Numbered from the stretch's first letter, positions 3,211 to 53,324 are shown. The stretch is 64,000 nucleotides of DNA from a virus (IMGVR_UViG_3300048839_001082:1-64000); one strand, 5' to 3'. Numbers and translations: made by a program. The notes: generated from the letters alone by a model not told the origin.

Positions 3211-6200
3211 ATGACTAATGTTAACACAAAAATCTACGACAAGGCGATAGATCGTGCCGCAATGGTGAGACTGTATGAGCGTAGAGTGAATAGCAAAGTC
3301 GCTAAAGATCTCGATGATCATATTGTTCGTTTAGATAGTCTGATTAGAAAGACAGATAAGCTTAATAACCCTGCCTTAATGGATGGAATTGACCTTGAAC
3401 TTTTAAACACTTATAAAAATACCTTAAACACAACTAAAAGATCTCTTTTAGATTTATTCACTGATCAAGTATCATATGCCTACCAAAATATTGAAGTGGC
3501 CATGGGTCATATTTGGGAAACTGAAAGACCTCATACACGATTAGCTGAAGATGTTGTTTTAAAGAGATCTCTAGTGGGTGACAAGACATTGGCCGGAAGT
3601 TGGGCGGGTGTTAGTTATAATGAAAGACTTCGATTACAAGCTATAATTCGTAAAGGTATTGCAGAAGGTGAAACCGTCGATAAGATTGCCCTTGCCATTA
3701 GAAAAGGCAATCTACATCGAATCACACGTTCACAATCTAGAGCATTAGTCGTGACTTCAATAACTAGTGTGGCTTCTCAAGCAGACCAGGCTGTTTACTT
3801 AGCGAATGAAAAGGCAATTCGTGGTTATCAATACGTGGCTGTGTTGGATAGTAGAACCACGTTACTTTGTTCTCATCGTGACGGTAAAATCTTTCCTGTT
3901 GAAGACACTGTTCACTTGCCTCCGGCGCATATAAACTGCAGATCAACCACTGTTCCTGTAATGGCATCTTGGGAAGATCTCGCTAAATTGGAAGGCGTGG
4001 CTCAAGTTAGACGTAAGAATATTGAAAAATTGAGTAAGCGACAAATTGCATATTATGATGGCCTTACACCGCTTAAAGAAAGTTATAATGACTGGCTGCT
4101 TAGGCAGCCTAAAGAGGTACAATTACGTCATTTGGGTGATTATAAGCGTGTTGAGCTTTTTAATACTGGTGAGCTCACCGTGGATAAGTTTTCCAATGCT
4201 GAGGGTAACTCCGTAGGTATTCGCGAATTAAGAGCAATTACTGAAGCAGGTTATACAATACCTGGTGACACTAAACGATTTGCGGCTGCTAAAGCACAAT
4301 TAGATTCAATGCAATTAGGTGCTTCAAAACCTGAAGATTTCTTTATTGATAAAAAGTTAGTGAAAACACTTGAAGATTATTATGTGCTTCAATCTAAAGA
4401 GCTCGGTGGTACTTTATCATTAACTAATTATCGTGGCGCTTTGATTCATACCAAAAAGAGCATGAAATCTCGTGTGCTCACTTCTCCACCTAGAGAGGAT
4501 CAACTCAAATTTAACCCGATTACTGGAAGATATGAAGATGTTCGATTGTATCAACCCAATCCTGGCGTATTAGCTAATAATCTTAAACTTGTTGAAGAAA
4601 GCGATGTTCTTCTAGCGAAAGACAAAGAATTCTTATTGCAATTTTCAGACTCTCTAAAAGATCGTATGAGTGTGAATGAGCGAGCTGTGGTAGTTGACAA
4701 TTTAAGAATTTTGTTTACTCGTTATCGGAATAATAAAGAAATTTGGGGTAATTTCAAAGCTGTATCTCAGGCTCAGATTAAGTTTGATGTGATGAACGTA
4801 TCTGACGCAATAGAAACACAGATTAGGAAAGATTCAGATATTCTTAAGAAATTGCTTCAAGATAATTATATTGATCCGGTTTTAGGTCCCACTCAACTTG
4901 AGGAGTTACAAGCCACCTTTCTCAGTAACATTCGAGAAAGAAATCTTTGGGAAGATAGAGTTGCACCAGGAATTGCAAAGAAACTTCGTTCAACCTTTGA
5001 TCTTACTATTGCTAAGAAAGTGCCCACTGTCTGGGGCAGACTTTCTGATAGAGAACTGCAGCAATTTTATCTCAAGTTTGCCCATAGACTCAGCCTCGCA
5101 GACTCTCCAGACAGAGATCAATTCGCAGTTCAACTAGGTAGAGATCTTTATAATTTAGCTAATTATAATGGTGATCGTAGAAAGTGGTATGAACTTGGAA
5201 TGGCGATTTTAGAAACCAAGAAGGTTCATCGTTTCTTCGAGATTGAAACATTCGGTGTTCAAAAGCGTCGGATGAAAAGTCGAATGAGCGGCAATTATTT
5301 TGGACCCTATTACGATACTGTTGCTTACAATATCAGAGTGACCGACCCAAAAATACAAAGATATTCTCAATTAACTCGTAAGATCGATGTTGGCCTCAGA
5401 GTGGCTGTGATTGATCCTAAGAATCGTCTTGTGGTTAGAGAAGGTTATAAGACATACTTTATTGATCGTGGTTTACTTGGTTATGAAGATACTCGAATCC
5501 CTATTACTTCAACACACAGTTTTAGTGATTTCCCGGAAGAAATGGTGGATAAGAGTCTAGTCGATGCACTAAATTGGGCCGGTAAAACTGAGTATAAAAT
5601 CGATGAGGACTATCATGATTTTATCAGAAAGTTGTTATATTTTGAAGATGACAAAGGGAAGGCCAAATATTATAATGAGCTTAATGAGTATCGAAAGTTT
5701 ATTGCAGCTAGAGGCGATTCTTATGAACGATTCAAAGCAATGGAATGGCTTCGAAATTCAGGAAAGTCATTTAGCAACCATCCTTTCATCGATCACAGAG
5801 CCCGTATATATGATCGTGGAATGATCTCTCCACAATCCGGTGAAACCTTTCGACCTTTCTTAAATACCACTGAACCTAAGATTTTAGGAATTGATGGATA
5901 TGAAAATCTACAAGACCAAATAGGATCCTTTTTGGGTGGTTTGAACGATCGACTTGAAGGCAGGTTTAATTCGCTGACAGTGACAGGTAGACAAAAAATA
6001 GCTCAAAAGTGGAAAGCTGATTTAGTGAAAATCGGCAATCACATGTTAAGAGGGAAGCCTGGAGATATACGTGCAATACTCGAGTCGGAAATTACGAAAG
6101 ATATAGATGGTGAAGATATCGGAAAATTTTACAGATTCGCTATTGAGCAAGCCAAGCTCGATAATTATTTGGGCGGTGACTATTCTATCCGTAATCTTAA

Positions 6201-7887
6201 TAAGCTTAACAATTATCGCACTTCTCTTGCCTTAGAGCAAGATGCTTCTTCTTCAGGCGCTCAAATAATCGCAATTACAACACGTAATAAACAATTGGCG
6301 GAACTAAGCAATGTCATCCCAACAACTCAAAAGAAACGATTGTACGACGAAATTGCTGCTGCCACTTTCAATGATCCCCGGTTTAAAAATCTCAATAAGA
6401 AATTGGGACTATCGGAGAAGGATCTTCGAAAAGCGGCGAAAGCTCAAAATATGGTTACATTCTACGGAGCAGGCGAACGCACCGGAATCTTAAATGTTGA
6501 AGGGAAGTTGAGCAAAGTCCTTGGAAAAGATACAAATACTTTAGTAGTCAAGGCAGCGGATCGAGATACAGTACTCAACGAAATTTCAGCTCAAATTGCA
6601 AGATATGAGAAGTTTGATCTTGATACTGCAGAAGAGCTTCGATTACTAAGGAATAACGTTAAAGATATCTTTAACAAAGGACTTGATCCTGGTGATGATA
6701 TTCTTGAACAACTCTATTTCTTGCAACCACAAACACGTGAACTTGTTGAGAGAATGTCAACGAATTATGAACGAGTGGTAACCCCTGATGATTTTAAACA
6801 AGTCGCGAAAATCATGAGTGAGCATCTCGCGGAACAAGTGCCCATTCTCAAAGAATTCACTAAGTTTTATGGTAGATTGGCTGAAGACTTTTTAAAGAAT
6901 TCAAAACCATCTAAGAGCGATTTCGATTGGGAAAGTATTGCTAAAACAAGCATTCGAGGCTCTAAGTCTAAAGGTTATGTTTTGCCTGATGTGGTAAGTC
7001 GTATTTTAGGTATAAAAGCTAGAGAGCCTGTATCTGAAAAAGTTTTGAGACGTTTTGGTTTTTGGAAACCTGACGGAACATTAAGTGAAATTCTCTATGG
7101 GGTCCCTTCTCCCGAAGATCGTAGAACAGGCGCCAAATTTATGAAACTTGAGATACTAACACCTACACTTCCGACTCCAGAAAATCTATTGAAAGGTAAA
7201 TTTTTATCTGAGCAAAAAATATCAGGTGTTGAGGTCTTCTATGCTAATAAATTGCCTAAAAGCTGGACAAACGTTCCTTCTGCTAATTTTGATGGAAAAA
7301 TTATAGAACAAAATTTCACTCAAACTTTTGAAGAGCGTTTATTCTATAAAAATCCTGACGGTACTTGGACAACGAACATTCTACAAGTTCTTCAAAAGAC
7401 TTCTTCTAATTGGTGGGAAGAAGCAGCAAATAAAATAGGTAAGATAAATGATATTGCGGATGCTACTAAAGCTAGAACAGCTTTTGGTGTTAACGCTAAT
7501 CATTCCAATGATGCTGTATTGGTGAAGAAATTTCATTTGTGGGGTAAGCGTGAAGGTGTTCCAACTTCCACGATTCATGACGCTTTCTTCGCGAATGCAG
7601 CTGATATGCTTAAAGCTAGAAAGGCTTTACGTACAATCTATGCTGAAGCTTTAAAGAATAATGTTATCAAACTTACATTAGATGAGATGTTAGCTAGAGG
7701 ACTTCCCAGACATCTTTATGATCAATATCTAAAAGAAGCCATAGATTCTGGTCTGATCCCTGTAGAAGGTATTTCCAAGATCAATGGAAGAACAATGAAA
7801 AAGAATGATATTCTCAATGAAGATGATATTTTGAAACCCGTTCCTGACGGTTTTAAAACGGACTATAGCTGGTATGGAGTTGGCTGA
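3211..7887 (+). CDS. MuF/SPP1 gp7-like head morphogenesis domain fused to a T7-like single-subunit RNA polymerase (putative virion RNAP)
   Basis: N-terminal AVLDSRTT..C...DG...PPAHINCRST (MuF). C-terminal DHRARIY, motif A EQDASSSGAQ, motif B RKAAKAQNMVTFYG, NANHSNDA, motif C TIHDAF. Confidence 0.9.
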   Translation: MTNVNTKIYDKAIDRAAMVRLYERRVNSKVAKDLDDHIVRLDSLIRKTDKLNNPALMDGIDLELLNTYKNTLNTTKRSLLDLFTDQVSYAYQNIEVAMGHIWETERPHTRLAEDVVLKRSLVGDKTLAGSWAGVSYNERLRLQAIIRKGIAEGETVDKIALAIRKGNLHRITRSQSRALVVTSITSVASQADQAVYLANEKAIRGYQYVAVLDSRTTLLCSHRDGKIFPVEDTVHLPPAHINCRSTTVPVMASWEDLAKLEGVAQVRRKNIEKLSKRQIAYYDGLTPLKESYNDWLLRQPKEVQLRHLGDYKRVELFNTGELTVDKFSNAEGNSVGIRELRAITEAGYTIPGDTKRFAAAKAQLDSMQLGASKPEDFFIDKKLVKTLEDYYVLQSKELGGTLSLTNYRGALIHTKKSMKSRVLTSPPREDQLKFNPITGRYEDVRLYQPNPGVLANNLKLVEESDVLLAKDKEFLLQFSDSLKDRMSVNERAVVVDNLRILFTRYRNNKEIWGNFKAVSQAQIKFDVMNVSDAIETQIRKDSDILKKLLQDNYIDPVLGPTQLEELQATFLSNIRERNLWEDRVAPGIAKKLRSTFDLTIAKKVPTVWGRLSDRELQQFYLKFAHRLSLADSPDRDQFAVQLGRDLYNLANYNGDRRKWYELGMAILETKKVHRFFEIETFGVQKRRMKSRMSGNYFGPYYDTVAYNIRVTDPKIQRYSQLTRKIDVGLRVAVIDPKNRLVVREGYKTYFIDRGLLGYEDTRIPITSTHSFSDFPEEMVDKSLVDALNWAGKTEYKIDEDYHDFIRKLLYFEDDKGKAKYYNELNEYRKFIAARGDSYERFKAMEWLRNSGKSFSNHPFIDHRARIYDRGMISPQSGETFRPFLNTTEPKILGIDGYENLQDQIGSFLGGLNDRLEGRFNSLTVTGRQKIAQKWKADLVKIGNHMLRGKPGDIRAILESEITKDIDGEDIGKFYRFAIEQAKLDNYLGGDYSIRNLNKLNNYRTSLALEQDASSSGAQIIAITTRNKQLAELSNVIPTTQKKRLYDEIAAATFNDPRFKNLNKKLGLSEKDLRKAAKAQNMVTFYGAGERTGILNVEGKLSKVLGKDTNTLVVKAADRDTVLNEISAQIARYEKFDLDTAEELRLLRNNVKDIFNKGLDPGDDILEQLYFLQPQTRELVERMSTNYERVVTPDDFKQVAKIMSEHLAEQVPILKEFTKFYGRLAEDFLKNSKPSKSDFDWESIAKTSIRGSKSKGYVLPDVVSRILGIKAREPVSEKVLRRFGFWKPDGTLSEILYGVPSPEDRRTGAKFMKLEILTPTLPTPENLLKGKFLSEQKISGVEVFYANKLPKSWTNVPSANFDGKIIEQNFTQTFEERLFYKNPDGTWTTNILQVLQKTSSNWWEEAANKIGKINDIADATKARTAFGVNANHSNDAVLVKKFHLWGKREGVPTSTIHDAFFANAADMLKARKALRTIYAEALKNNVIKLTLDEMLARGLPRHLYDQYLKEAIDSGLIPVEGISKINGRTMKKNDILNEDDILKPVPDGFKTDYSWYGVG

Positions 7888-7889
7888 AT

Positions 7890-7909
7890 AAAGCTGTTAT
7901 ATTAACCCA
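7890..7909 (+). promoter_or_regulatory. candidate phage RNAP promoter, class CTGTT-N4-WAACCC, upstream of scaffold/capsid genes
   Basis: AAAGCTGTTATATTAACCCA matches 32550..32569 at 19 of 20 positions. Confidence 0.6.
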
Positions 7910-32549: not shown

Positions 32550-32569
32550 AAAGCTGTTAAATTAACCCA
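32550..32569 (+). promoter_or_regulatory. candidate phage RNAP promoter upstream of the lysis genes
   Basis: AAAGCTGTTAAATTAACCCA, near-identical to 7890..7909. Confidence 0.6.
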
Positions 32570-32666: not shown

Positions 32667-33212
32667 ATGGAATTAATAGCTGCAGTATTCGGTTTCTTTG
32701 CTCCATTTCTGACTGAAGCGTTTAAGATATTTCAGAAGAAACAAGATAATGCTCATGAGCTCTCCATGATGAGAATTCAGATTGAAGCTAAAGCACAAGA
32801 ACATGTTTATAGAATGGAAGAGATTAATGCTAATGCTGATATCGCTGAAATGAGCACTCTCAGAGCTGCTCCTACATCTTTCGGTGTACAGTTGATCGAT
32901 GCAGCTGCTAATAAGAATTTTAGCAAGTGGATGATTGGCCCGGTATTTTATCTATTTGCCATTCTTGATTTTATATCCAGTCTCGTGAGACCCACGATCA
33001 CTTACGCGGCTTTCACGTTTTACGCGGCAGTGAAGTGGGCTCAGTTTGAGCATGCTCGTACATATCTTGGAAGCAATTATAGCGCGCTTTTGCAGATATG
33101 GACGACTTCAGATATGTCCATTGTTATTTTAGTGCTATCCTATTGGTTTGGACAAAGAGCAGCTAAGGCAGCCTTTGGTGGCTCAGCTAATACAATAACC
33201 AAAGGTGGCTAA
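32667..33212 (+). CDS. putative holin (3TM-holin-like)
   Basis: Transmembrane segments with VRP.ITY and YWFG.R motifs; directly upstream of the endolysin. Confidence 0.65.
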   Translation: MELIAAVFGFFAPFLTEAFKIFQKKQDNAHELSMMRIQIEAKAQEHVYRMEEINANADIAEMSTLRAAPTSFGVQLIDAAANKNFSKWMIGPVFYLFAILDFISSLVRPTITYAAFTFYAAVKWAQFEHARTYLGSNYSALLQIWTTSDMSIVILVLSYWFGQRAAKAAFGGSANTITKGG

Positions 33213-33712
33213 TGGACAAAGAAGTCTTAGAATTGGTGAAAACAATTGCAATGCCATTCGAAAGACTTTATTTAGATGCGTATTGGGACCCTCATCCTCA
33301 CGGTCTTCCGACACAAGGATGGGGTCGTCTCCTCTCTCGCTACAGTCGGAAAATGCATCTAGATGAAGGTAAAACTTTAGAGCAAGCTAATGAATGGCTT
33401 CGCACCACATATCCACGAATAACCAGAGACACGGCTGATGAATGGCTTGAAGAAGATATTGAAAAGGCTAATAAAGCGGTTAAACGATTGGTCAAGGTCT
33501 CACTCACTCCGGGACAAGAAGCTGCCTTAACTGATTTTGCCTATAACGTAGGACCGGGCAATTTACAAATTAGCACACTTCTTAGAATGATAAATCGAGG
33601 TGACTTCCCGGATGCCGTTGAAGAATTTGAGAAGTGGAATAAATCAGGGGGTGTTGTTCTTAAAGGTCTAGTTCGCCGTAGAGCGGCTGAAGTTTTGATG
33701 TTTATGCTTTGA
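33212..33712 (+). CDS. endolysin, phage lysozyme (GH24)
   Basis: FE.....AY.D...T.GWG, AL.DFAYNVG and KW.K.GG.VLKGLVRRR.AE motifs. Confidence 0.9.
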   Translation: MDKEVLELVKTIAMPFERLYLDAYWDPHPHGLPTQGWGRLLSRYSRKMHLDEGKTLEQANEWLRTTYPRITRDTADEWLEEDIEKANKAVKRLVKVSLTPGQEAALTDFAYNVGPGNLQISTLLRMINRGDFPDAVEEFEKWNKSGGVVLKGLVRRRAAEVLMFML

Positions 33713-33713
33713 T

Positions 33714-33935
33714 ATGGAAATCATACATTTGGTCGCTGTTACCCATATCAATAATACGACTTTGAGAACAGTTGAGATGGAAGATAAAACTTTTAGAACC
33801 ATTGAATTTCCATTTAAAGGAGAACCGACCGTACTTGAAAGTTATTCGAAAGTATTCGAATCGACCATTGGTCATGTAAATTGGGCGCATGTAATAAAGA
33901 CGCGCAGAGATTCAAACAATCAACTTGAGGAATAA
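33714..33935 (+). CDS. hypothetical protein
   Basis: Closely packed ORF after the endolysin. Confidence 0.55.
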   Translation: MEIIHLVAVTHINNTTLRTVEMEDKTFRTIEFPFKGEPTVLESYSKVFESTIGHVNWAHVIKTRRDSNNQLEE

Positions 33936-33936
33936 T

Positions 33937-34326
33937 ATGTTTAGTGTAACCGCAACTTTTTCTTTTCTGAACGCGAATGGCTCTCCCGCTAAAGATCCTG
34001 TGATCGAAAAGTGGAACGGTCTCGAGAAGATGAAAGTCGTCGATCAACTTGAAGATCGTTTTTTAGAATTTTTATTGAAGTTAAATCAAGTCGCCACTGA
34101 TGTTGGACATGGTAGAGTTGAAAAGCCCTCCACCACGAATCCTGTGGAAGTTCAATTGGAAGTTTTGGTTACTGAAGATGGAAAGAAGTGGACCAGAGCC
34201 GTTTTCGAATGGCCTAATATGGGCGAAGAGCAACAGGCAGTGATGTTAGGCTTATTCTACGGTGAAATGGCCACTCTCGATAAAGATACTGCTGATAAGA
34301 AAGAAAGCAAGAGCAAACAAAGATGA
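33937..34326 (+). CDS. hypothetical protein
   Basis: GAGG RBS before ATG 33937. Confidence 0.65.
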   Translation: MFSVTATFSFLNANGSPAKDPVIEKWNGLEKMKVVDQLEDRFLEFLLKLNQVATDVGHGRVEKPSTTNPVEVQLEVLVTEDGKKWTRAVFEWPNMGEEQQAVMLGLFYGEMATLDKDTADKKESKSKQR

Positions 34327-34429
34327 ATTTCCTATTTCGTATTAAACTCAGACTTCTGTATTGGGTGGGATACGCAGAAGGTCGCTTCGATTTACTCACT
34401 AAATTGTTAAAATAACCTTCTGAAAAATT

Positions 34430-34454
34430 GCGGAAAAAGGGGTATCTTATATGA
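34430..34454 (+). promoter_or_regulatory. candidate early promoter GCG-N9-GTATCTTATATGA (copy 1)
   Basis: 13-nt core repeated exactly at 38214..38226; both copies are intergenic and precede gene blocks. Confidence 0.55.
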
Positions 34455-34490
34455 GAAGTAGAGATACCCCTTAACCCAATAGGAGATCAA

Positions 34491-34685
34491 ATGCTAGACT
34501 TCCATGCCCATGCTCGTAGAGAGCTTGATGCAACAGCATTACGTTGCAGATTAGAAGCGAATGTACTCGAAGCGAAGCGGACATTTAAAAATGATCCTCC
34601 AGAGCTTCAGATGGAGATTGATTATCTCCGTCACAAGGCCTCTAAGCTTGATGCTGAAAGAGAACGACTGGAATTTCGAGATTAA
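34491..34685 (+). CDS. hypothetical protein, 64 aa
   Basis: AGGAG RBS. Confidence 0.65.
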   Translation: MLDFHAHARRELDATALRCRLEANVLEAKRTFKNDPPELQMEIDYLRHKASKLDAERERLEFRD

Positions 34686-34689
34686 GTTC

Positions 34690-34960
34690 TGTGGGTAACT
34701 CCTACGGCGTGGTGGTCACCACGAAATAAGTGACGCCTTCGACAGGTATGTCGACCCAGTCTTACAAAGGGGTATTAATACTAGTGAGGGCGGCTAGCAC
34801 CGTCTCAATTGCGATGAGTAACCATGCTAGTGGTCTCATGTCGGATTCGTAACCGACACAGCTGGTAGGCTATCCCTTCTACCGCCGGCTAATGAAATGA
34901 AGGAACCCATCTGAAATATGGTGGGACCACTTAAGCATCTTCGAAAGAGGGTGGTTTACA
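34690..34960 (+). ncRNA. putative structured RNA block A
   Basis: About 270 nt without an ORF, tiled by hairpins; complementary loops CTAGCA/TGCTAG; CTGAAA T-loop-like element. Confidence 0.45.
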
Positions 34961-34970
34961 GGAGAAAACC

Positions 34971-35195
34971 ATGTGCGAGCTTTGTGTTCTCGGGGGTTGG
35001 CCAGAAGGTGAATGCTTCTGGAGTGAAAAGAACAAGAACGAGGAATCAATCATGATTGACTCGATCATGATTCACGACGACGCGGCCGCGAATGATCTTC
35101 TCGCGAGTGAGCGTCTCGATCTGTTGTGGGAATACGTCTGTGATTTCTACAGTACACCCAGGCAGACTTACGCGCGTTTTGTTTTCGGGGTTTGA
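34971..35195 (+). CDS. hypothetical protein
   Basis: AGGAG RBS; alternative start at 35052. Confidence 0.5.
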   Translation: MCELCVLGGWPEGECFWSEKNKNEESIMIDSIMIHDDAAANDLLASERLDLLWEYVCDFYSTPRQTYARFVFGV

Positions 35196-35280
35196 ATACA
35201 TGCATGGTGCTGACCCTGTGCATGCTAAGCCTCCGACGAGGCGGAGTCAGCTAGGAAAAACTGTGTCACCGAATTGACAC

Positions 35281-35317
35281 GCCGGATCAGTAACCGGCAT
35301 TAATTTTTTTTTTTCGA
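35281..35317 (+). terminator. hairpin plus A-T11-CGA terminator-like signal (copy 1)
   Basis: GCCGG-ATCAGTAA-CCGGC then T11CGA; the same T11CGA occurs at 39351..39365. Confidence 0.6.
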
Positions 35318-35331
35318 CCAAAGGAGTCAAA

Positions 35332-35628
35332 ATGACGAAGTACATCGGAAATGCGTTTTCTCTGGCGATGGTCCGCGATGAGGATCTAAATAAGGTCTTC
35401 ATGGTCCCTTGCATGGAGCCTGATAGTCGTGAGTGTGTGTCCGTGGTTGGACACGCGGATACGGCGGCCATGCTGGGTGTTGCCTTCAATCGGGTCAGTC
35501 TTCAACTCGAGCCTGGCGACGAACTTTATGTTGCCCAGTATCAAGGAGGACGGCTTCCTGAGGGTGCCACAACGTTGCCGGAGGGTAGTAGTTTCCGGTG
35601 GATCCTTGTTAGTGTTAGAGATTTTTAA
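35332..35628 (+). CDS. DUF1874/STIV B116-like protein
   Basis: YIGNAFSL.M, S.VGH.DTA..L, NR..L.L.PGD and RLPEG motifs. Confidence 0.75.
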   Translation: MTKYIGNAFSLAMVRDEDLNKVFMVPCMEPDSRECVSVVGHADTAAMLGVAFNRVSLQLEPGDELYVAQYQGGRLPEGATTLPEGSSFRWILVSVRDF

Positions 35629-35637
35629 GGAGAGCAC

Positions 35638-35814
35638 ATGCAAATGCACATCGGGCAAATGTCCAAGCCGAAAGGCACAATGAAATCTCCCGCTCAAATG
35701 CGAGAGATGTCCGAGGCTCTGAATAAGAGTATTAGGAAACATGCGATGGACAATCATTGGGGAAGCCAACCAACGACATTTCCTGAAACAACCCGTAACC
35801 AACGAAAGGACTGA
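35638..35814 (+). CDS. hypothetical protein, 58 aa (MQMHIGQMSKPK...)
   Basis: TAAGGAG RBS; stop overlaps the next start; below the ORF-track cutoff. Confidence 0.6.
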   Translation: MQMHIGQMSKPKGTMKSPAQMREMSEALNKSIRKHAMDNHWGSQPTTFPETTRNQRKD

Positions 35815-36083
35815 TGATGTCAAACGACAAGAACCTCGGTAAGTTCATGGCCAAGATCGCCATGTCTGCCGATGAGGCGACCAAGGAAAGCATTCGTGCT
35901 TTCCAGGAAGAGCTCAAGCAGCGCAATCAGGAGATGATCCTGAACAAGCTGAGGGAGGTCCACACGTTGATTGAACGTCAGGTGCAGAACTTGCGTGCGT
36001 TGCGTGCACGCGAAAAGACTCATCTGGCTGAGATTCGTCGTCTGGAGGACTTGGCGAACAGCATCGTCTCCGGTAAGGAGTGA
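35814..36083 (+). CDS. hypothetical coiled-coil protein
   Basis: AAGGA RBS; heptad-rich sequence. Confidence 0.7.
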   Translation: MMSNDKNLGKFMAKIAMSADEATKESIRAFQEELKQRNQEMILNKLREVHTLIERQVQNLRALRAREKTHLAEIRRLEDLANSIVSGKE

Positions 36084-36085
36084 TG

Positions 36086-36375
36086 TTGCGCGGGGCATAC
36101 CGATGATCGGCACCGCGTTATAAATAAGTCGTGAAACGGTACGTAACGGTTCTCACGGACCGTTCGTCTATGCTATATTAAATTAAACTTTATAGGGTAT
36201 AGCTTGAGTCTTGATGACCAAAAAGCCGCCCCTCGCCTTGTGCAAAATCTCAATCCGTCCTCGTGACGGAGGCAGCCACCCCGTACAATCTTTATGGTCC
36301 TTTATCAGAACTATAATAGATGAAAAGGTGGAACCACTGCCTTAAGCGTCCCAAGTGGATTCTTAAGGCAGTGCA
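36086..36375 (+). ncRNA. putative structured RNA block C
   Basis: ORF-free, with multiple hairpins and pseudoknot-compatible segments. Confidence 0.35.
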
Positions 36376-36406
36376 ATTGTGCTCTGCAACGACCAATGGA
36401 GTCGAT

Positions 36407-36499
36407 ATGCTCGTACGTCTGAAGAGTGACCGGAGTGTTGTAACCTGGATGTCCATTGAGCATTTGGAACATCTGTGGCATCGGTGGGAACCTGCGTAA
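36407..36499 (+). CDS. small hypothetical peptide, 30 aa (MLVRLKSDRSVV...)
   Basis: GGAG RBS; lies between two long hairpins. Confidence 0.4.
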   Translation: MLVRLKSDRSVVTWMSIEHLEHLWHRWEPA

Positions 36500-36573
36500 T
36501 TAACGCAGGAAGCTGATAGTTAGGGCATCGATCAAAAGTCGGTGCCTTAAAATCAGTTTAACAAGGAGACTGT

Positions 36574-36807
36574 ATGGATTCAAGAGAGACTGCCCATTTT
36601 GTGGAAGGTGCGATGATGGAGTACTATCGTCGCAACGAATGGAATCCTGAAGACTATACTCGGTATACTCAGGAAACGATCAATAAGGTCTGGAGGTATC
36701 TGACTCAACCGAGTCAAACCATTGATGCGTCTTACACGGATATTCAAGCGCACATCGCGCTCGAAGCAGGTAAGATTCATTTTCCGCAAAGTCTCAAGCG
36801 CCGCTAG
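36574..36807 (+). CDS. hypothetical protein
   Basis: AAGGAG RBS; stop codon lies within the 5' end of tRNA-Arg. Confidence 0.65.
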   Translation: MDSRETAHFVEGAMMEYYRRNEWNPEDYTRYTQETINKVWRYLTQPSQTIDASYTDIQAHIALEAGKIHFPQSLKRR

Positions 36808-36873
36808 CTCAGGGGATAGAGCAACGGCCTTCTAAGCCGTAGGCCGCTGGTTCGAATCCAGCGCGGTGCGCCA
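36798..36873 (+). tRNA. tRNA-Arg (TCT)
   Basis: GCGCCGC/GCGGTGC acceptor stem, ACGGC-CTTCTAA-GCCGT anticodon arm, GGTTCGAATCC, encoded CCA. Confidence 0.95.
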
Positions 36874-36875
36874 GT

Positions 36876-37176
36876 TAACGAACGATGAGATGACGGGTTA
36901 GCGCCGTCATTGGTCAGAAGACTCCTTTCTCCGTAAACGCTGCTTCATGCGAGCTCATCGTTCGTTATTCTAACTGTCCTGCTCGGATACGTCCCTGAGA
37001 GTATTGGACGAAAGGCATTAAAAGCAGCTGAGACTTGGTTGCAACTCATGAGGCAGCTGTGCTATAAGTCGATCGAAATCTGGGAAGAGCCGGGATGTCT
37101 GTGTCCCGTAGTAAGAAAACAGAATAGGTTGAGACTGTACTGCCGAACCAGTACGCCGGAAGGACAGTAACCGGCA
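36876..37176 (+). ncRNA. putative structured RNA(s) D/E downstream of tRNA-Arg
   Basis: Perfect 14-bp stem 36876-36889/36954-36967; 8-bp pairing 36973-36980/37161-37168; three TGAGA T-loop-like hairpins. Confidence 0.5.
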
Positions 37177-37188
37177 TCCTACAATTGC

Positions 37189-37509
37189 ATGGAGAATGAT
37201 GTGACAGATTTCAGTAAACCTTTTGTTGTAAATTCGAATCCGTTCGGCTCTTTCGGAAGGGACTTTGAGAAGCTCGTTCCGAGACTCGAAGACATTCCTG
37301 AAGATTTCGATAATAAGCGTAAGTGGGAGGAGTGGCAGTCTGAATGGTTTTTCTCAGGTCTGACACCGACTCCGACACCTCGCCCTGGAATTGATGTCGA
37401 TTTGGCATTGCGACATCTCGCCGCAATTCAGCGTTCGTGGGAACCAAAGCACGAGCACAAGCAGATCTACGTAGCCTATCTTGCCAGTCTCTGGTTTGAA
37501 CATCCTTGA
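37189..37509 (+). CDS. hypothetical phage protein (SWEPKHEHK motif)
   Basis: Plausible composition; coupled to the next ORF. Confidence 0.6.
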   Translation: MENDVTDFSKPFVVNSNPFGSFGRDFEKLVPRLEDIPEDFDNKRKWEEWQSEWFFSGLTPTPTPRPGIDVDLALRHLAAIQRSWEPKHEHKQIYVAYLASLWFEHP

Positions 37510-37520
37510 AAGGAATTATT

Positions 37521-37856
37521 ATGATGAACACTGAAATGTTGGCCGCTTTTGAATCCGCCAAAAATGAAATTCAGAGAATTCTGGAAGACTGTGAAAAGAC
37601 GAGAGGTAAGAAATTCCGGGTGTATGTCGAACTGATGCAAACGCTGACACTGCTCTTTCAGTCCGGTGGAGTTGGGACCGGAATTCTCACCGCAAAAACG
37701 GCTGAAGTTTGCGGAGCAATCAGCGTGGAACTCGGCCTCAGTGATGCGGACAGCCGAGAAGCATTGAATATCGTGAGATCTCTCGAAAAGATCGGCAAAG
37801 AATTGGGAGATAAATTGTCACTTGCCCGAGCGGACGGTGTGTCCAATTTGAACTAA
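37521..37856 (+). CDS. hypothetical protein
   Basis: AAGGA RBS before ATG 37521. Confidence 0.65.
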   Translation: MMNTEMLAAFESAKNEIQRILEDCEKTRGKKFRVYVELMQTLTLLFQSGGVGTGILTAKTAEVCGAISVELGLSDADSREALNIVRSLEKIGKELGDKLSLARADGVSNLN

Positions 37857-37867
37857 AGAAGGCAATC

Positions 37868-37981
37868 ATGAACAAACAAAAAGGTTTCACGATTTTTGAG
37901 TTGATCGCAGCACTCGCCACTGTGGGTATTTTCAGTGTTGTAGCTTACGTGTTATTTCATTTCATCAGCAAGTTCTGGTGA
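37868..37981 (+). CDS. 37-aa prepilin-like peptide (MNKQKG/FTIFELIAALATVGIFSVVAYVLFHFISKFW)
   Basis: Class III signal: basic leader, G at -1, F at +1, E at +5, then a hydrophobic helix; GAAGG RBS; absent from the ORF track. Confidence 0.7.
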   Translation: MNKQKGFTIFELIAALATVGIFSVVAYVLFHFISKFW

Positions 37982-37986
37982 TTCGA

Positions 37987-38063
37987 GGGCCGTTAGCTCA
38001 GTCGGTAAGAGCAGCGGACTCATAATCCGTTGGTCGTTGGTTCAAGTCCAACACGGCCTACCA
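37987..38063 (+). tRNA. tRNA with CAT anticodon, most likely tRNA-Ile2 (lysidine) rather than Met
   Basis: Cloverleaf with GCGGA-CTCATAA-TCCGT arm and CCA; lacks initiator features; resembles enterobacterial ileX-type tRNA as recalled. Confidence 0.9.
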
Positions 38064-38078
38064 ATAAGGAGATAGTTC

Positions 38079-38198
38079 TTGAAAGAGCTCTACAAACCCT
38101 TAACCGAAAAGGAAGAAAAACTCGGTGTGATACTAAGGGCCATCACTGTTGTTGGGCTCACGGTTTTTTGGGCTTTTGTAATTGCATATCAATTTTAA
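38079..38198 (+). CDS. small membrane protein, 39 aa
   Basis: AAGGAG RBS, TTG start, one hydrophobic helix. Confidence 0.5.
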   Translation: MKELYKPLTEKEEKLGVILRAITVVGLTVFWAFVIAYQF

Positions 38199-38201
38199 AC
38201 A

Positions 38202-38226
38202 GCGCGTAAATCAGTATCTTATATGA
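38202..38226 (+). promoter_or_regulatory. candidate early promoter GCG-N9-GTATCTTATATGA (copy 2)
   Basis: Exact core repeat of 34442..34454. Confidence 0.55.
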
Positions 38227-38257
38227 AGAGATCCCTCTTCTAACTTTGGAGTAAAAG

Positions 38258-38557
38258 ATGACCTCTTTCCAATGGATCAGTTTGTTGGTGACATTCACGA
38301 TCAGTTACATTTACGGATTTGTGTTGAGCATTTTCTTCATGAGTCTGTTCCTGAGCATTGGTGTGGAAGCATTGGCGGCGGTGCTTTTGGCGACCGGCGC
38401 GACCTTCCTTGTCACTCTCGGAACGATCAACCCACTCATGACAGTTTGTGAGAATGCTTCGACACTCGCTTACAGTGCATACGATAACATCCGAAAGGGT
38501 GTGAAGAGTCTTCGGAAGTCTCCGAAGAAGGATAACGTATTTATTCTCAACTTTTGA
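38258..38557 (+). CDS. membrane protein
   Basis: Two hydrophobic helices and a basic tail; GGAG RBS. Confidence 0.65.
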   Translation: MTSFQWISLLVTFTISYIYGFVLSIFFMSLFLSIGVEALAAVLLATGATFLVTLGTINPLMTVCENASTLAYSAYDNIRKGVKSLRKSPKKDNVFILNF

Positions 38558-38567
38558 AGGAGATGTC

Positions 38568-38813
38568 ATGTTCAAGACTATTGTTAATTTTCTCTTCAGT
38601 GGCCTGAGTTTCGCATGGTTCGTTCTGCTTCTCGGTGGGCTGATCACCATGTTGACCGCGCCTTCGCTGTTCGGTTTCGTGCTCGTCACGGCGGGTGCGT
38701 TGGCCACCCTCAAACTGGCCGTGGCAATCGCGTTCGGTGTCGGCGGCTTGCTCGGCGCCGGTGCGCATTATCTACGGCGGCGTTTGACAGGGCATAAGTT
38801 CGAGCAAGTATGA
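38568..38813 (+). CDS. membrane protein
   Basis: AAGGAG RBS; hydrophobic helices and a basic tail. Confidence 0.65.
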   Translation: MFKTIVNFLFSGLSFAWFVLLLGGLITMLTAPSLFGFVLVTAGALATLKLAVAIAFGVGGLLGAGAHYLRRRLTGHKFEQV

Positions 38814-39037
38814 TCGCATCTTTAAAACGTGCGGTGCTGGCCATGACAGTAGTGCTGTTTATCGGAATGCTTTTAGCGTTCTTTAGTGCACCTGTTTTCT
38901 TAGGGTTCACTATCATAACAGCCTCTGTCGTGGCCACAGTGACCACATATGCTCTGCTGGCATTTACAGTTACCTTCCTTTGGGAATGGTTGAGGAAAAA
39001 GAATGCAAAACATTCAAACAATCAATCGACCGCCTGA
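38810..39037 (+). CDS. membrane protein
   Basis: ATGA overlap; two hydrophobic helices and a basic tail. Confidence 0.6.
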   Translation: MIASLKRAVLAMTVVLFIGMLLAFFSAPVFLGFTIITASVVATVTTYALLAFTVTFLWEWLRKKNAKHSNNQSTA

Positions 39038-39302
39038 AATACTGGTAGAAGGATTCTTTGCAACGCGCAAAGATTATCCAGATATCAGTAAGCAATTTTT
39101 GGATGAGCAATCGTTCAAACAGAGTGTGAGAAGATTTACTGCTGATGATCTATACATTACAGACATAGAAAAACTAAAAGGAAATCTTTTGAATGCAATC
39201 GAGGTAGTAGGTGTTATACAGCTGTCAGGGTCGCTCATCCCATTCTTCGTCACGAAGGAAAAAGCAAAACAATTGCGAATGTTGATTGGTAGACGGAGTT
39301 GA
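39003..39302 (+). CDS. hypothetical protein
   Basis: GAGG RBS; last gene before the terminator. Confidence 0.6.
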   Translation: MQNIQTINRPPEILVEGFFATRKDYPDISKQFLDEQSFKQSVRRFTADDLYITDIEKLKGNLLNAIEVVGVIQLSGSLIPFFVTKEKAKQLRMLIGRRS

Positions 39303-39311
39303 TAAAATAAA

Positions 39312-39365
39312 CTACCAAGCACCTTAAAAAGGTGCTTGGTAGAGTTCCCTATTTTTTTTTTTCGA
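39312..39365 (+). terminator. 14-bp hairpin plus A-T11-CGA (copy 2)
   Basis: CTACCAAGCACCTT-AAA-AAGGTGCTTGGTAG then T11CGA. Confidence 0.65.
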
Positions 39366-39594
39366 AAGGGCAATGTGAGCGAGAATGAAATCAAGGGCGT
39401 GCATTTTTTGATGATTGTGATTACCTTGATTGTTCTTTCTCCTTTGTCATTTGAAATGTCGGTATTAGTGTCGATTTTAATCTATATGTATCAGAAAGAA
39501 ATGACCAAATGAAAATTTTGATCTTGCTGTTTTTATTGTATGTAATTCCAAAAATTGTCAGTAAACTTAAATAAATTGTAAATCAGGAGTCGTC

Positions 39595-42351
39595 TTGAAA
39601 TCGAGAGTAGTGGCTTCATTGACTCGGAGAATTACCACTGAAGCTGTTCTGCAAGCTCAGTTACGATTCTTAAAAGAGCATGATGTGAACTCTTATGTAA
39701 ATACTGTAATTTCTACATTATACTTGTACACAAGACCTAAAAAGGGTTACGAAACAACTTCTGTTTACATGGCTGAATTGATTTCTGCCTTGGGTCATGG
39801 TGTGCGAACAAAACTTAAGCTCAAAAGAGACTCCAATGCCGCTGCTAAACTAGGTGCATTTTTATTATATACATTCGAAGAACTTGGTTATATAAAAGTG
39901 ATATTGGGTGTGGGAACGAGACACGCCACTTATATCGTGACTGTAACCAATGACAATGCAATAGTATCGATGTGGAGTGCGATGGAAGCTTCTCATATTG
40001 AGAAATTACCGTCCGGAACTCCATATGCTCCTTGGACCAGCACAAAACATAATGCTGGAATTCGAATGGTGAAGACTAATGATAAAGGAGTACTTGATAA
40101 AATCGCTCCTGAAACTCATCCAATTTTATTCAATGTACTTAACAAAGCTCAAGCCGTCGGTTGGAGAATTCATAAAGAGATTTACGACCTTCATGCATGG
40201 GCGCTAAGGAATAAAACGGATGCATTTGCCGATATTTGGGAACAACAAAATCCCGAAGCGAAGGCTACGAAAATAAGAGAAGTTAAAGCCATCGGCGAAA
40301 TGGCAAAGAAGTTTCTTAACAGTCCAATATATCATCTCTATTATTATGATTTTCGTGGTAGGAAATACACGAATACAGCTTATTTACATGAACAGGGTAA
40401 TGATCTGGCCAGAGCTTTACTCCAAAGAATTGACGAGAAGAAAATAGGCAGAGCAGGTTATTGGTGGATGCTGGTATCAATTGCGTCAAATTGGGGTGGT
40501 GATTCTGGCAGACTTGATGGACTAAAAACTGATAAGATTCCCCTTCAAGAACGTTATTTATGGGCGTTAGATAATGAAGATATTTTATTGGCATATGCTG
40601 AAAAGCCTAAGGTACATCAAGGTTGGATGAAGGCTGACAAACCTTGGCAGTTTCTCGCAGGATGCATTGAGCTAAAAAGACTCAGAGAATGGCAGTATCA
40701 ATACGGCAGTGTTAAAAACCCATTTGAAGATTATAATTATGAATCTCACATGGAAGCCTACATTGATGGTAGCAATAATGGTTCTCAACATCTGGCTGCT
40801 TTGACGCTGGATGAAGTCACGGCGCCTCACGTAAATTTGGTTCCGTTAGAACTTCCAGGAGATCTCTATTCTTATGTGGCCGGACATGTATGGGACCATC
40901 TGCATGAGCTCTTGAAAGATTATCCAGAAGAAGAACGTGAAGACTGTGAAATCTTTATCGATAACTTGATAGAATTGAAGAAGAAGATAACTGCGGCCGA
41001 GCCTAAAAGCGATGTGAGAAGAGAATTAATAGCTTCGATTCAAACTTTTAAAGAGGCTAATCAATATATTCTAGATAAATCTGCCGCGGTGTATTGGTAC
41101 AGGATCGAAGATAATAAGCACAAAAGAAAGATCGTGAAGAGAAACGCGATGACAATTCCGTTGTAAAGGCGGAAGTAAAAGAGGGTGAATTCAGTGGACA
41201 TCCATTCGCTGTGGACAATACTGAGCCGAGCCGTTTAAACGGAAGGTGCAACGACTATCATGTAGGGCAGAAGTCTGCTCGAAGCCCCCTCCACTCCTTG
41301 AGTGATGATATAGTCTGGTCTGCATAGTAATATGCAGCTGTATTAAGCAATTGGTATGAATATGAATTGGAACGAAATCTTTATCTACAACGCAGATGGC
41401 AGTTTAACGAGGCGTTATTCAAATAATCAGCATAATACTGTTGGCTGGATAAATAGTTCAGGTTACAGAGGTGTTGTTAGAACTAAAAATAATAAATTTC
41501 AAGCACGTTTAACGCTAGAAGGTAAAAAGCTTTACTTAGGCTTGTTCGATACGCCCAAGGAAGCTTTTGATTGTGTTGAAACTACACGTAAAGAGTTGTA
41601 CGGCGAATTTGCAACTCTTAGATAAATTGCTTAATACGGGTGAAGATTAACGAACTTCATTGAACACAACGATGGTGGAACAAGTTATGGAATGGGGCAG
41701 CAGATAATTGATGATTCTAGAAAACACGGTATTGACCAGTTACTCTATTTAGAACATAAATGGGGTGCCTTCTTGGGTAGAGCCGTCTTTAATGATTGTC
41801 GATTATCTTTAAAACGCCCTATGAAGCTGTTATCAATTTTTGAAGAAGCCGGAAAGAAAGCCGAGAAACAAGGTAGATTTCTGTCTTGGACAGTGCCTAT
41901 AACAAATTTCCCAGTAGTTCAACACTACACAGAAGGTGTGGTGAAGAAGGTCTGGTGTCAATATGGTCCTCCTAGGGGTCCTCGACTCAGTACAAATTAC
42001 TTCGAAAACACTTACCAAATTTCTATTTCTTTCATCGAAGAACGTGTGCCTTCCCGAAATAAACAATCTCAAGGTGCGAGTCCCAATGCCATTCATAGCT
42101 TAGATGCAGCTCATTTGGCGTTGACCGTTGAAAGATGTGATTTCCCAGTAACTACCATTCATGATAGTTTCGGGTGTTTATTAGCTGACATGCCTGTTTT
42201 GTTCAGGACGGTTAGAGAGACTTTTGTTGAACTTTATAATGCCAATCCGTTAGAGCATTTAATGAAAGACTTAGGCTGCAATATCAATGATGTGGATAGA
42301 GGTACGCTAGATATTTCACTAATACTCGAATCTGAGTATGCATTTTCATAG
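39595..42351 (+). CDS. T7-like DNA-dependent RNA polymerase, intron-split: join(39595..41161,41672..42351), 748 aa
   Basis: DFRGRKY, motif A IDGSNNGSQH, motif B restored by splicing (RKIVKRNAMTIP-Y-GG), PNAIHSLDA, motif C TIHDSFG, C-terminal YAFS. Confidence 0.9.
41162..41671 (+). mobile_element. group I intron in the RNAP gene (510 nt)
   Basis: P1 TTCCGT/GCGGAA with U-G at the 5' splice site; P7 elements ACGACTA and GATATAGTCT; terminal G; splicing restores frame and motif B Tyr. Confidence 0.9.
41356..41625 (+). pseudogene. intron-encoded HNH-AP2 homing endonuclease remnant lacking the HNH domain
   Basis: SGYRGV...KFQAR....GKKLYLGLFDT..EA...LYGEFA AP2-type domain; no HNH motif; flanked by the TATTAAGCAATT/AATTGCTTAATA stem. 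Confidence 0.7.
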
Positions 42352-42358
42352 GATCAAA

Positions 42359-42787
42359 ATGAGATTTATTACTGACGTTTCTCAAGTGTACCGTATGGCT
42401 GGTTTAGAACATGAGTGTCCAGTTACCTTCTCTGCGACTTCATTCCCACCATATGAGTACAATCTCAAAATCCCCAAAGCTGTTGGTAAACGCTTGATTG
42501 AAAGCTTTGAAGGAGTAACACTCTATCCTGGTCGAGATTTTTTGAATGATGATGGTGGATTTGCAATAATTCTCGATTCTAAAAAGGACCTTTCAGATTC
42601 GAGATTTGGATTGCCGGATCTTAATGTCGCTGAAGCTGTTCGATTGATAAATACCGAAAATAAAGAAAGATGGGCAAGTGTACTATTTATCACGAACAAT
42701 GAAACAGGCATTGAGTATGTCTTTAATATTGATCTCTTGAATGAAGAGCAATTGGTCCAGCTTCTTCATATGCACCAGGAAGATTGA
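42359..42787 (+). CDS. hypothetical protein
   Basis: AGGA RBS before ATG 42359. Confidence 0.6.
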   Translation: MRFITDVSQVYRMAGLEHECPVTFSATSFPPYEYNLKIPKAVGKRLIESFEGVTLYPGRDFLNDDGGFAIILDSKKDLSDSRFGLPDLNVAEAVRLINTENKERWASVLFITNNETGIEYVFNIDLLNEEQLVQLLHMHQED

Positions 42788-50500: not shown

Positions 50501-50717
50501 AATTTTAGCCGCATTGTCGGTGTTATCCGCATTTTCCGCATTGCTTTACGGTAGTTTCATTTTGATATCTAAGACGGTCCCTTTGGAAAGTGTTGATTAT
50601 ATCTTACTAGGGATTACATTTATGATCGGAGGCAAGGTTTTTATCAGCTTCACTGAAACCTCCAAGGACAAATCCAGCGATGGGAACGATAGTAGCCAAG
50701 AACAGACCTTGCCTTGA
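50493..50717 (+). CDS. small membrane protein
   Basis: Two hydrophobic helices. Confidence 0.55.
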   Translation: MSKILAALSVLSAFSALLYGSFILISKTVPLESVDYILLGITFMIGGKVFISFTETSKDKSSDGNDSSQEQTLP

Positions 50718-53316: not shown

Positions 53317-53324
53317 AAGGTATA

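Follow-up and report, generated by a model that had tools for sequence, protein, structure and literature searches.

The promoters of the virion RNA polymerase of coliphage N4 contain conserved inverted repeats which form a short stem with a 3-nt loop around position -11. T7-type promoters are long duplex elements reaching from -17 to +6, with a TA-rich segment at -4 to -1 and a purine start; both descriptions follow the available part of one article (PMC4496689). In the available part of their article Iyer et al. 2017 place virion RNA polymerase modules only in N4-like phages (PMC5512222). Here we describe a repeated element of the phage contig IMGVR_UViG_3300048839_001082 (81,522 bp), the first 64 kb of which are the window, that is, the whole stretch presented. 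It has 41% GC, carries nearly all genes on the + strand and encodes two single-subunit RNA polymerases (RNAPs).

3211..7887, + strand: MuF (minor head protein) fused to a single-subunit RNA polymerase, 1558 aa, with Pfam Phage_Mu_F and RNA_pol domains
39595..42351, + strand: free T7-like RNA polymerase gene, with a group I intron at 41141-41337 and an HNH open reading frame (ORF) at 41356-41625

The element, termed class 1, is about 30 bp long and occurs twice upstream of the free RNAP gene. It is most likely a promoter, a reading well supported by the comparison of sequences. With confidence a little above even we further propose that class 1 serves a large family of long-tailed phages as a duplex early promoter and that it would be read by the MuF-fused polymerase of the capsid.

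A preliminary description of this region had reported GTATCTTATATGA at 34442-34454 and 38214-38226, each preceded at a distance of 9 nt by GCG (34430-34432 and 38202-38204). Both copies are indeed exact.

34425..34457, + strand: candidate class-1 early promoter, copy 1, AAATTGCGGAAAAAGGGGTATCTTATATGAGAA; 44.1 bits; predicted start at or near G34453, followed by a Shine-Dalgarno sequence and an ATG at 34491
38197..38229, + strand: candidate class-1 early promoter, copy 2; 33.1 bits; predicted start at or near G38225; ATG at 38258

The leader of copy 2 opens with the hairpin GAAGAG-AUCC-CUCUUC. Taken from this genome alone, the pair of 13-mers is only weakly significant. The genome contains 125 independent exact same-strand repeats of at least 13 nt. 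Three of these have both copies in intergenic gaps (about 5 kb in total), where 0.28 are expected, and at least one such pair arose in 92 of 500 shuffles. When up to two mismatches were allowed, neither the start motif nor the T-rich end motif described below exceeded the shuffles within this genome. The observation is settled because other genomes give the decisive evidence. A weight matrix built from the sites of relatives finds exactly two sites in 81.5 kb (44 and 33 bits), the next best site scoring 1.2 bits. A motif search, as proposed in the preliminary description, yielded the two sites here and at least 160 stretches of IMG/VR.

The pattern GCG-N9-GTATCTTATATGA was found in these at least 160 IMG/VR stretches, mostly with two or three copies per contig within a few kb, as compared to 7 for the reversed control. 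The nine positions left free by the search pattern as well as both flanks are also conserved among 162 distinct windows, which give the logo AAnTGCGGAAAAAnnGGTATCTTATATGAAA. In order to avoid circularity the upstream half alone, TGCGGAAAAANNGGTATC, was used as a query. This search returned 36 distinct sites, of which 20 continue with the exact TTATATGA and 16 with unrelated sequence; intermediates were not found among them. Class 1 therefore has the contiguous conserved block of at least about 20 bp, the same in the copies of one genome and in relatives, that is expected of a duplex promoter.

Ten complete genomes carry the motif. Besides the studied genome (G000) they include four complete syntenic relatives (G001-G004), whose fusion proteins are 58-65% identical to the one described here and whose free RNAPs are 47-61% identical in the N-terminal part. 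Two copies are present in G000 and in G004 and three in G003. G001 holds one copy plus a second with one mismatch far downstream, and G002 three variant copies (C/T-C-ATCTTATATGR) plus one canonical copy downstream. Usually the copies are clustered, with two to four per stretch. A comparison of the DNA with isolate phages gave the tRNAs as the sole matches.

A diverged homologue of class 1, GGCATCTATAATGA, occurs in the cultured roseophage DSS3_VP1 (Naomviridae). This phage has the same layout, with a fusion protein 29% identical to the studied one and a free RNAP in addition. Its core sites, GGCATCTATAAT, lie at 35808, 36255 and 67792. The first two, with the sequence AAAAAGTGAGAAAACTAAGGCATCTATAATGA, stand directly after the tape-measure gene, upstream of the RNAP gene and ahead of the first small genes; the third is found 3' of a terminator. 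The core agrees with GGTATCTTATATGA in 10 of 14 letters, and the upstream TG.G.AAA is kept. The nearly identical phage DSS3_PM1 has the first two copies, the stretch compared ending before the third. Cultured Naomviridae carry a MuF-fused RNA polymerase; the available part of the Naomviridae paper mentions neither an RNA polymerase nor these motifs. Literature searches found no paper on this motif, on MuF-polymerase fusions or on their promoters, and an Endozoicomonas phage preprint that came up was unrelated.

The position of class 1 is equally constant. In the studied genome and its four relatives every copy, the extra downstream copies named below aside, lies between the tail/lysis block and the free RNAP gene, in a gap-rich stretch 1-5 kb upstream of the latter. 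All 12 class-1 sites of these five genomes are on the gene strand. A Shine-Dalgarno sequence and a start codon follow 10-59 nt downstream in 123 of 154 distinct sites. The element consequently stands where a duplex promoter should, on the gene strand, in gaps and shortly before genes. In 41 of 159 motif loci (flank of up to 3 kb) a free RNAP with 36-64% identity starts 0.9-2.7 kb downstream on the same strand. In the window the fusion gene is followed by genes for the major capsid protein, a 3202-aa tape measure protein, a 2303-aa fibre protein and an endolysin (33212-33712). A T7-like DNA polymerase, an intein-bearing primase-helicase, a ribonucleotide reductase and a ligase are encoded 3' of the free RNAP gene. 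The studied region is therefore flanked directly by the late genes on one side and by the phage's free polymerase gene on the other.

Class 1 is asymmetric. About 25 contiguous letters are constrained, with a TA-rich end which is followed by G/A and a purine-rich leader. An N4-like hairpin promoter was considered as a family feature and rejected, the consensus being devoid of an internal inverted repeat. The preliminary description had noted an inverted repeat overlapping copy 1. This repeat is real, with 11-nt arms at 34437-34447 and 34462-34472 separated by 14 nt; it is peculiar to this genome, not a conserved part of the motif, and not enriched in 154 sites of relatives. Class 1 is present in two to four copies, mostly in the early region, and ten of ten genomes encode the fusion polymerase, for which packaging is predicted.

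An early promoter of the host RNA polymerase, as strong as A1-A3 of T7/T3, would occupy the same place. We consider it unlikely that class 1 is such a promoter and that the fusion has another role or other sites, although this is the best surviving alternative. The annotated E. coli promoters A1-A3 of T3 are likewise upstream of the phage RNAP gene, the core of class 1 is TA-rich and reads TATAAT in the DSS3_VP1 version, and the motif is present in bacterial chromosomes too. However, sigma-70 hexamers spaced by 16-18 nt, with T as the last letter of the -10 hexamer, were not found. The sole TTG-hexamer (TTGCGG) lies 13-15 nt from TTATAT/TATATG, and a -35 at 16-18 nt is missing from the consensus, from DSS3_VP1 and from the bacterial island copies described below. 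The would-be -10 ends in G, and the conserved block of about 25 contiguous letters includes the would-be spacer, where GGTATC is invariant. A scan of 33500-42500 with the sigma-70 consensus flagged neither class-1 site and was at chance (15 found, 15.0 expected). Finally, a constitutive host promoter would be odd ahead of the replication and integrase genes of the islands.

The polymerase part of the fusion is T7-like. It matches Pfam RNA_pol with E=4e-11. In alignments with the free RNAP its residues 851-1054 correspond to one half and residues 1351-1493 to the other, DASSSGAQ standing opposite DGSNNGSQ and TIHDAF opposite TIHDSF. The palm motifs A, B and C are invariant in eight fusion sequences including that of DSS3_VP1, as expected of a T7-like RNAP. 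In a Foldseek search with a low-confidence model of the fusion all 49 matches at E<=1e-3 were T7 or mitochondrial RNAPs. Against the sequences of the PDB, phmmer found nothing and a profile search gave only weak matches to T7 RNAP (E about 2e-3). Cysteine is missing from residues 244-1558 of the fusion, although the proteome mean would predict about 9 there; the free RNAP contains 7. As an indirect indication, this absence would suit a protein leaving the capsid in an unfolded state. Relatives of the fusion were found in at least 542 IMG/VR stretches; the best 80 are all at least 60% identical.

Both polymerases are encoded in ten of ten complete motif-bearing genomes. Two fragments (G414 and G415) are devoid of the fusion; they are just 36-44% complete. 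Since class 1 lies upstream of the free polymerase gene, and this enzyme cannot transcribe itself into being, class 1 points to the fusion or to the host. Somewhat less probable still than a host promoter is a second promoter class of the free T7-like polymerase, the first transcripts coming from an unrecognised host or fusion promoter. Class 1 does resemble the long duplex promoters of the T7 type, as these are described in the available part of PMC4496689, and G003 has a class-2 site (see below) among its class-1 sites. But upstream of a gene whose product cannot make its own first mRNA, no other conserved motif and no sigma-70 site above chance was found. Moreover, classes 1 and 2 have no common sequence, and class 1 is exact where the N-terminal part of the free RNAP drops to 36-43% identity. 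In one of the complete genomes (G006) this part is 43% identical, as compared to 62-68% for the polymerase domain of the fusion, with class 1 exact; this contrast is weak support for the fusion as the reader of class 1.

A second motif, class 2, was found de novo by counting k-mers in the gaps of the five genomes. It reads CCCGTTAAATTAACCC, is unrelated to class 1 and has a palindromic core, GTTAA-A-TTAAC. The fuller form is CCCGTTAA(A/C)TTAACCC, and the form in the studied genome is AAAGCTGTTAWATTAACCCA.

1016-2662: portal gene
7890..7909, + strand: class-2 motif AAAGCTGTTATATTAACCCA, directly 3' of the MuF-RNAP gene and before the scaffold and capsid genes
32550..32569, + strand: class-2 motif AAAGCTGTTAAATTAACCCA, before the lysis genes
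69434 (genome position): degenerate class-2 motif, 3' of a T-run terminator and before the packaging block

Strong copies number 4-8 in seven of the ten complete genomes and 2-3 in the studied one; in G007-G009 all 4-8 copies are on the gene strand. In five of five genomes class 2 directly follows the fusion gene and precedes the scaffold/capsid genes; in three of five it also stands between the free RNAP gene and the replication genes. In G002, G004 and EBPR siphovirus 1 it stands just 3' of the T-run terminator before the packaging block. DSS3_VP1 has its own 22-nt motif in seven copies at comparable places, and CGTTAAA is common to it and class 2. A supposed likeness of class 2 and of the DSS3_VP1 motif to T3 promoters found no support in a matrix of 14 annotated T3 promoters. 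The mean best scores were -18.2 for class 2, -16.6 for DSS3_VP1 and -15.4 for class 1, random sequence reaching -19.5 and -22.0. What connects class 2 with the free polymerase is therefore solely the distribution of the motif. On that basis class 2 is likely the promoter of the free T7-like polymerase. Two polymerases and two unrelated motif classes suggest one class for each.

Several observations weigh against the assignment of class 1 to the fusion polymerase. The DSS3_VP1 version holds a perfect TATAAT, open to use by the polymerase of the host. G001, G002 and DSS3_VP1 have additional class-1 copies some 20 kb 3' of the RNAP gene. The structural model of the fusion is poor (pLDDT 54.7, TM 0.26-0.32), and its packaging is predicted from the MuF domain and the absence of cysteine only. 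Co-occurrence cannot separate the two polymerases because all ten complete genomes carry both. In a scan of the ten complete genomes class 2 as defined was absent from G005 and G006, and the T3-promoter matrix scores neither class above random sequence. The preliminary description had called the element a dedicated promoter for the MuF-RNAP. The promoter half of this claim holds up well, the element being conserved, directional, distinct from sigma-70 promoters and placed before early genes; the assignment to MuF is the most economical choice.

According to the proposed mechanism, the fusion polymerase would be packaged via its head-protein part and would enter the cell with the DNA. It would bind AAnTGCGGAAAAAnnGGTATCTTATAT and initiate at the following G/A (here G34453 and G38225), transcribing small takeover genes, two tRNAs and non-coding RNAs. 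Read-through of two leaky hairpin-plus-T-run attenuators would then reach the free T7-like polymerase gene. The free polymerase would in turn serve the middle and late blocks from class 2.

The ends of the early transcripts would be set by a T-rich element. As the preliminary description had it, ATTTTTTTTTTTCGA is found exactly at 35303-35317 and 39351-39365, 849 and 1125 nt after the start motifs, and a hairpin precedes each T-run (fold z-scores of -3.9 for the first and -5.1 for the second).

35263..35314, + strand: putative terminator/attenuator T1, two hairpins, 5-nt spacer ATTAA, T11
39312..39362, + strand: putative terminator/attenuator T2, 14-bp stem at 39312-39342, 9-nt G-poor spacer, T11

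The stems of T1 are GCCGG-N8-CCGGC at 35281-35298 and a second one at 35263-35280. The end of T2 is 232 nt from the free RNAP gene. Within this genome the T-runs stand out more than the pair of 13-mers: in 81.5 kb there are only three of at least 8 nt (35304, 39352 and 69320), all on the gene strand and 3' of hairpins, and no A-run of this length. Near the class-1 sites of relatives we counted 36 distinct T-runs of at least 8 nt on the motif strand versus 3 A-runs. The 60 nt 5' of these T-runs fold at a mean of -20.9 kcal/mol, as compared to -9.4 after shuffling. The 36 runs are 9-42 nt long, and a G-poor spacer of 4-24 nt separates stem and run in 25 of them. Between the last class-1 site and the start of the free RNAP gene a T-run of at least 7 nt is present in 23 of 30 distinct loci, mostly 150-300 nt before the start. 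The run at 39352 thus represents this conserved putative attenuator in the studied genome.

The letters around the run are not part of this conservation. The triplet before the run is TTA in 14 of 36 cases and the base after it C in 24 of 36; CGA is rare and recurs 3' of the run in G004 (T30) and DSS3_VP1 (T7) only. The same architecture ends the middle region before the packaging genes, at 69320 here, at 48408 in G002, at 25678 in G004 and at 14052 in EBPR siphovirus 1, a partial record with the early region outside it. Since neither flanks nor run length are conserved and middle units are closed by the same element, the earlier view of a sequence-specific terminator A-T11-CGA has to be given up: the element is neither sequence-specific nor private to the two units. 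It is better described as a putative general terminator type of the whole family, composed of a hairpin, a G-poor spacer and a T-run of 7-42 nt. In canonical terminators the U-tract stands directly at the stem, within 0-2 nt. A simple scan for such intrinsic terminators accepts the short stem of T1 with its ATTAATTTTT tail, and T2 with its 9-nt spacer is unflagged on the + strand. The notion of two matched transcription units proved too tidy as well. The pairs of motifs are real; about 2.9 kb of genes and two tRNAs between T1 and copy 2 are left without a promoter of their own. With the RNAP gene beyond T2, and with 35332-38209 lacking any class-1 site to serve it, both T-runs must leak.

Two further observations concern these elements. 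The T1 hairpin (35281-35300; GCCGG...CAGTAACCGGCAT) recurs at 37158-37177, there without a T-run and just before the ORF at 37189. Pure T-runs of 24-42 bases are found at terminator positions in G004 (L177-L180), in L076 and in other IMG/VR loci. They exceed the need of any terminator and may be subject to slippage or length variation.

The genes presumed to be transcribed first are small and variable.

34491..39512, + strand: early region; about 16 small ORFs, most of which match no family, with non-coding stretches totalling about 1.6 kb
36798-36873: tRNA-Arg, in the early region
37987-38063: tRNA-Met, in the early region

Four membrane proteins are encoded after copy 2. Two early ORFs match PHROG families, both of unknown function, and one matches Pfam STIV_B116-like below the cutoff. 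Over the 5.3-kb early region the DNA similarity to relatives is confined to the promoter, the tRNAs and one 41-nt block. Early genes turn over; the signal persists. An Rfam scan of 34300-39650 at a loose threshold gave the tRNAs as its sole matches.

The early region also holds a conserved RNA motif of two hairpins (AGGAACCCATCTGAAATATGGTGGGACCACTTAAGC...) at 34891-34960, inside the 285-nt gap 34686-34970, without a match in Rfam. Its 23-nt core recurs exactly in five further IMG/VR contigs, each time within a non-coding part of the early region. Compensatory changes are seen at two base pairs of the second stem, which is degenerate in this genome. An inverted repeat at 36876-36967, immediately 3' of tRNA-Arg, has perfect 14-nt arms and a loop of 64 nt. 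A prepilin-type N-terminal methylation motif (Pfam N_methyl, E=4e-7) makes up nearly all of the 37-aa ORF at 37868-37981, which stands between early genes and tRNA-Met.

Elsewhere in the genome, essential genes carry selfish inserts. The group I intron with its HNH ORF interrupts the free RNAP gene (41141-41625), which is continuous in relatives, and the primase-helicase (50680-53316) contains a Hint/LAGLIDADG intein. The ribonucleotide reductase is split into two ORFs (53313-54365 and 55113-56042); the 208-aa ORF between them (54434-55060) may be another insert. Both contig ends (1-263 of the window and 81397-81522 of the genome) lie inside one perfect 69-bp tandem repeat, with 3.8 copies at the start. 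The ORF containing the repeat spans the contig junction; the assembly is circular and was broken in the repeat array.

Class 1 was also found outside phages. A stricter 25-nt pattern, used against bacterial assemblies, returned 14 stretches, several of which are phage contigs binned into metagenome-assembled genomes (MAGs). Seven matches fall in bacterial-assembly contigs of 46-61% GC, and in five cases the contig is longer than 150 kb.

Seven bacterial carriers (L341-L345, L339, L349): Brevundimonas terrae, two Sphingomonadales, Erythrobacter, an Erythrobacteraceae MAG, Caenibius, a Marinomonas MAG

For five loci a wider stretch was inspected. In all five a tRNA-Thr(CGT) gene stands 2-7 kb upstream of the motif and in the same orientation, and in three of them (L341, L342 and L344) the GC content falls across the stretch. 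Between tRNA and motif defence genes are encoded, namely a Drt6/Drt4-type reverse transcriptase (E=6e-170) and a PbeA-like helicase-nuclease, and in another locus a PDC-M11B protein. In L341 the two motif copies enclose a methylase and restriction enzymes, and a ThsB-like TIR gene follows closely on the second copy. In L339, where the tRNA was not looked for, an OLD/GajA-like ATPase is found upstream of the motif. Small ORFs and a VapE-like or AAA_25 protein follow 3' of the island motif, with a P4-type integrase in two cases. In three Erythrobacter-like copies the motif is followed by a unit of about 70 nt which ends in a canonical terminator.

The motif alone is shared among the island copies. 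A tblastn comparison (E<=1e-3) of the island ORFs with the five complete phage genomes and the IMG/VR motif loci found no homologues, and the islands contain no class-2 motif. Sharing neither a protein nor class 2 with the phages, they suggest that the signal is read in trans. The exact 14-mer by itself showed no enrichment in 401 genomes of one order (7 matches versus 11 for the reversed control), the full upstream part being present in only 3 of these 7; therefore, only the full element counts. We tentatively suggest that islands in Sphingomonadales, in Brevundimonas and in the Marinomonas MAG copied the promoter as an infection switch, a possibility to which we give roughly one chance in four. 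The switch would be silent in the host; the capsid polymerase would fire it and turn on the island genes, for satellite induction or defence, within the first minutes of infection. An AT-rich 25-mer in GC-rich mobile islands, facing replication and integrase genes, is what would be expected if the islands were listening for the early polymerase. The integrase, the VapE-like/AAA_25 replication protein and the defence genes presumably resemble those of P4-like or PICI-like satellites with defence cargo. In distinction from these satellites capsid-redirecting genes were not seen in the islands, and induction through a helper promoter is hypothetical.

The islands also bear on the weakest alternative, an operator of a phage regulator, a signal for RNA processing or stability, or a recombination site, which is improbable in spite of the inverted repeat overlapping copy 1 and of two Sphingomonas copies flanking a 5.4-kb stretch with an integrase. 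The motif lacks symmetry and keeps strictly to one strand, and its conserved part reaches upstream of any plausible transcript. The inverted repeat is unconserved: motif-leader arms of 6 nt or more were counted in 41 of 154 sites versus 24 of 154 shuffled, barely an excess. An att repeat is excluded because the motif is single-copy in the other four of the five bacterial genomes examined.

Fusions of MuF with an RNA polymerase are widespread among environmental phages, as the IMG/VR count given above illustrates, and class 1 is the first concrete candidate for the signal read by their capsid polymerase. Should the assignment to the fusion polymerase be true, an injected polymerase would have a second, non-hairpin route to early genes, and a new orthogonal polymerase-promoter pair would be at hand. 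The unusual hairpin-spacer-long-T terminators would be explained, and the island copies would hint at hosts or satellites that listen for the early signal.

Among known systems coliphage N4 is the one whose logic is closest to our model. According to the available part of PMC4496689, its promoters P1-P3, read by gp50, are likewise few (three) and conserved, and stand ahead of the early genes; a virion-borne, T7-related single-subunit polymerase reads them, and the early genes supply a second phage polymerase. The N4 promoters, as described there, are DNA hairpins around a GC-rich heptamer at -11 and need gyrase and SSB, whereas in class 1 no inverted repeat is conserved and the element has the appearance of a duplex promoter. 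The N4 enzyme is a 3500-aa protein of a podovirus, in contrast to the fusion with a MuF head protein in a siphovirus described here, and the second polymerase here is a single T7-like chain, unlike that of N4.

The early region also recalls that of T7 and T3. There, clustered early promoters stand before small takeover genes and the phage RNAP gene (T3 record annotation), a terminator (TE) bounds the early unit, and about fourteen dispersed 23-nt phage promoters serve the later genes. Unlike in T7/T3, the early promoters of the present phage do not fit sigma-70, a capsid polymerase would be available, and the terminator stands before the RNAP gene, not after it. The T-run elements share with Rho-independent terminators, including Tphi (T3 annotation), a GC-rich hairpin followed by a T-run on the transcribed strand; they differ in the 4-24-nt G-poor spacer (25 of 36) and in runs of 9-42 nt. 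A T7-type promoter, in the available account (PMC4496689), is contiguous and highly specific, TA-rich before a purine start and followed by a purine-rich initial transcript, and in all of this it resembles class 1. Class 1 is longer (to about -27 if the G is +1) and bipartite, with a free spacer of 2-3 nt, and obtains no score from the T3 matrix.

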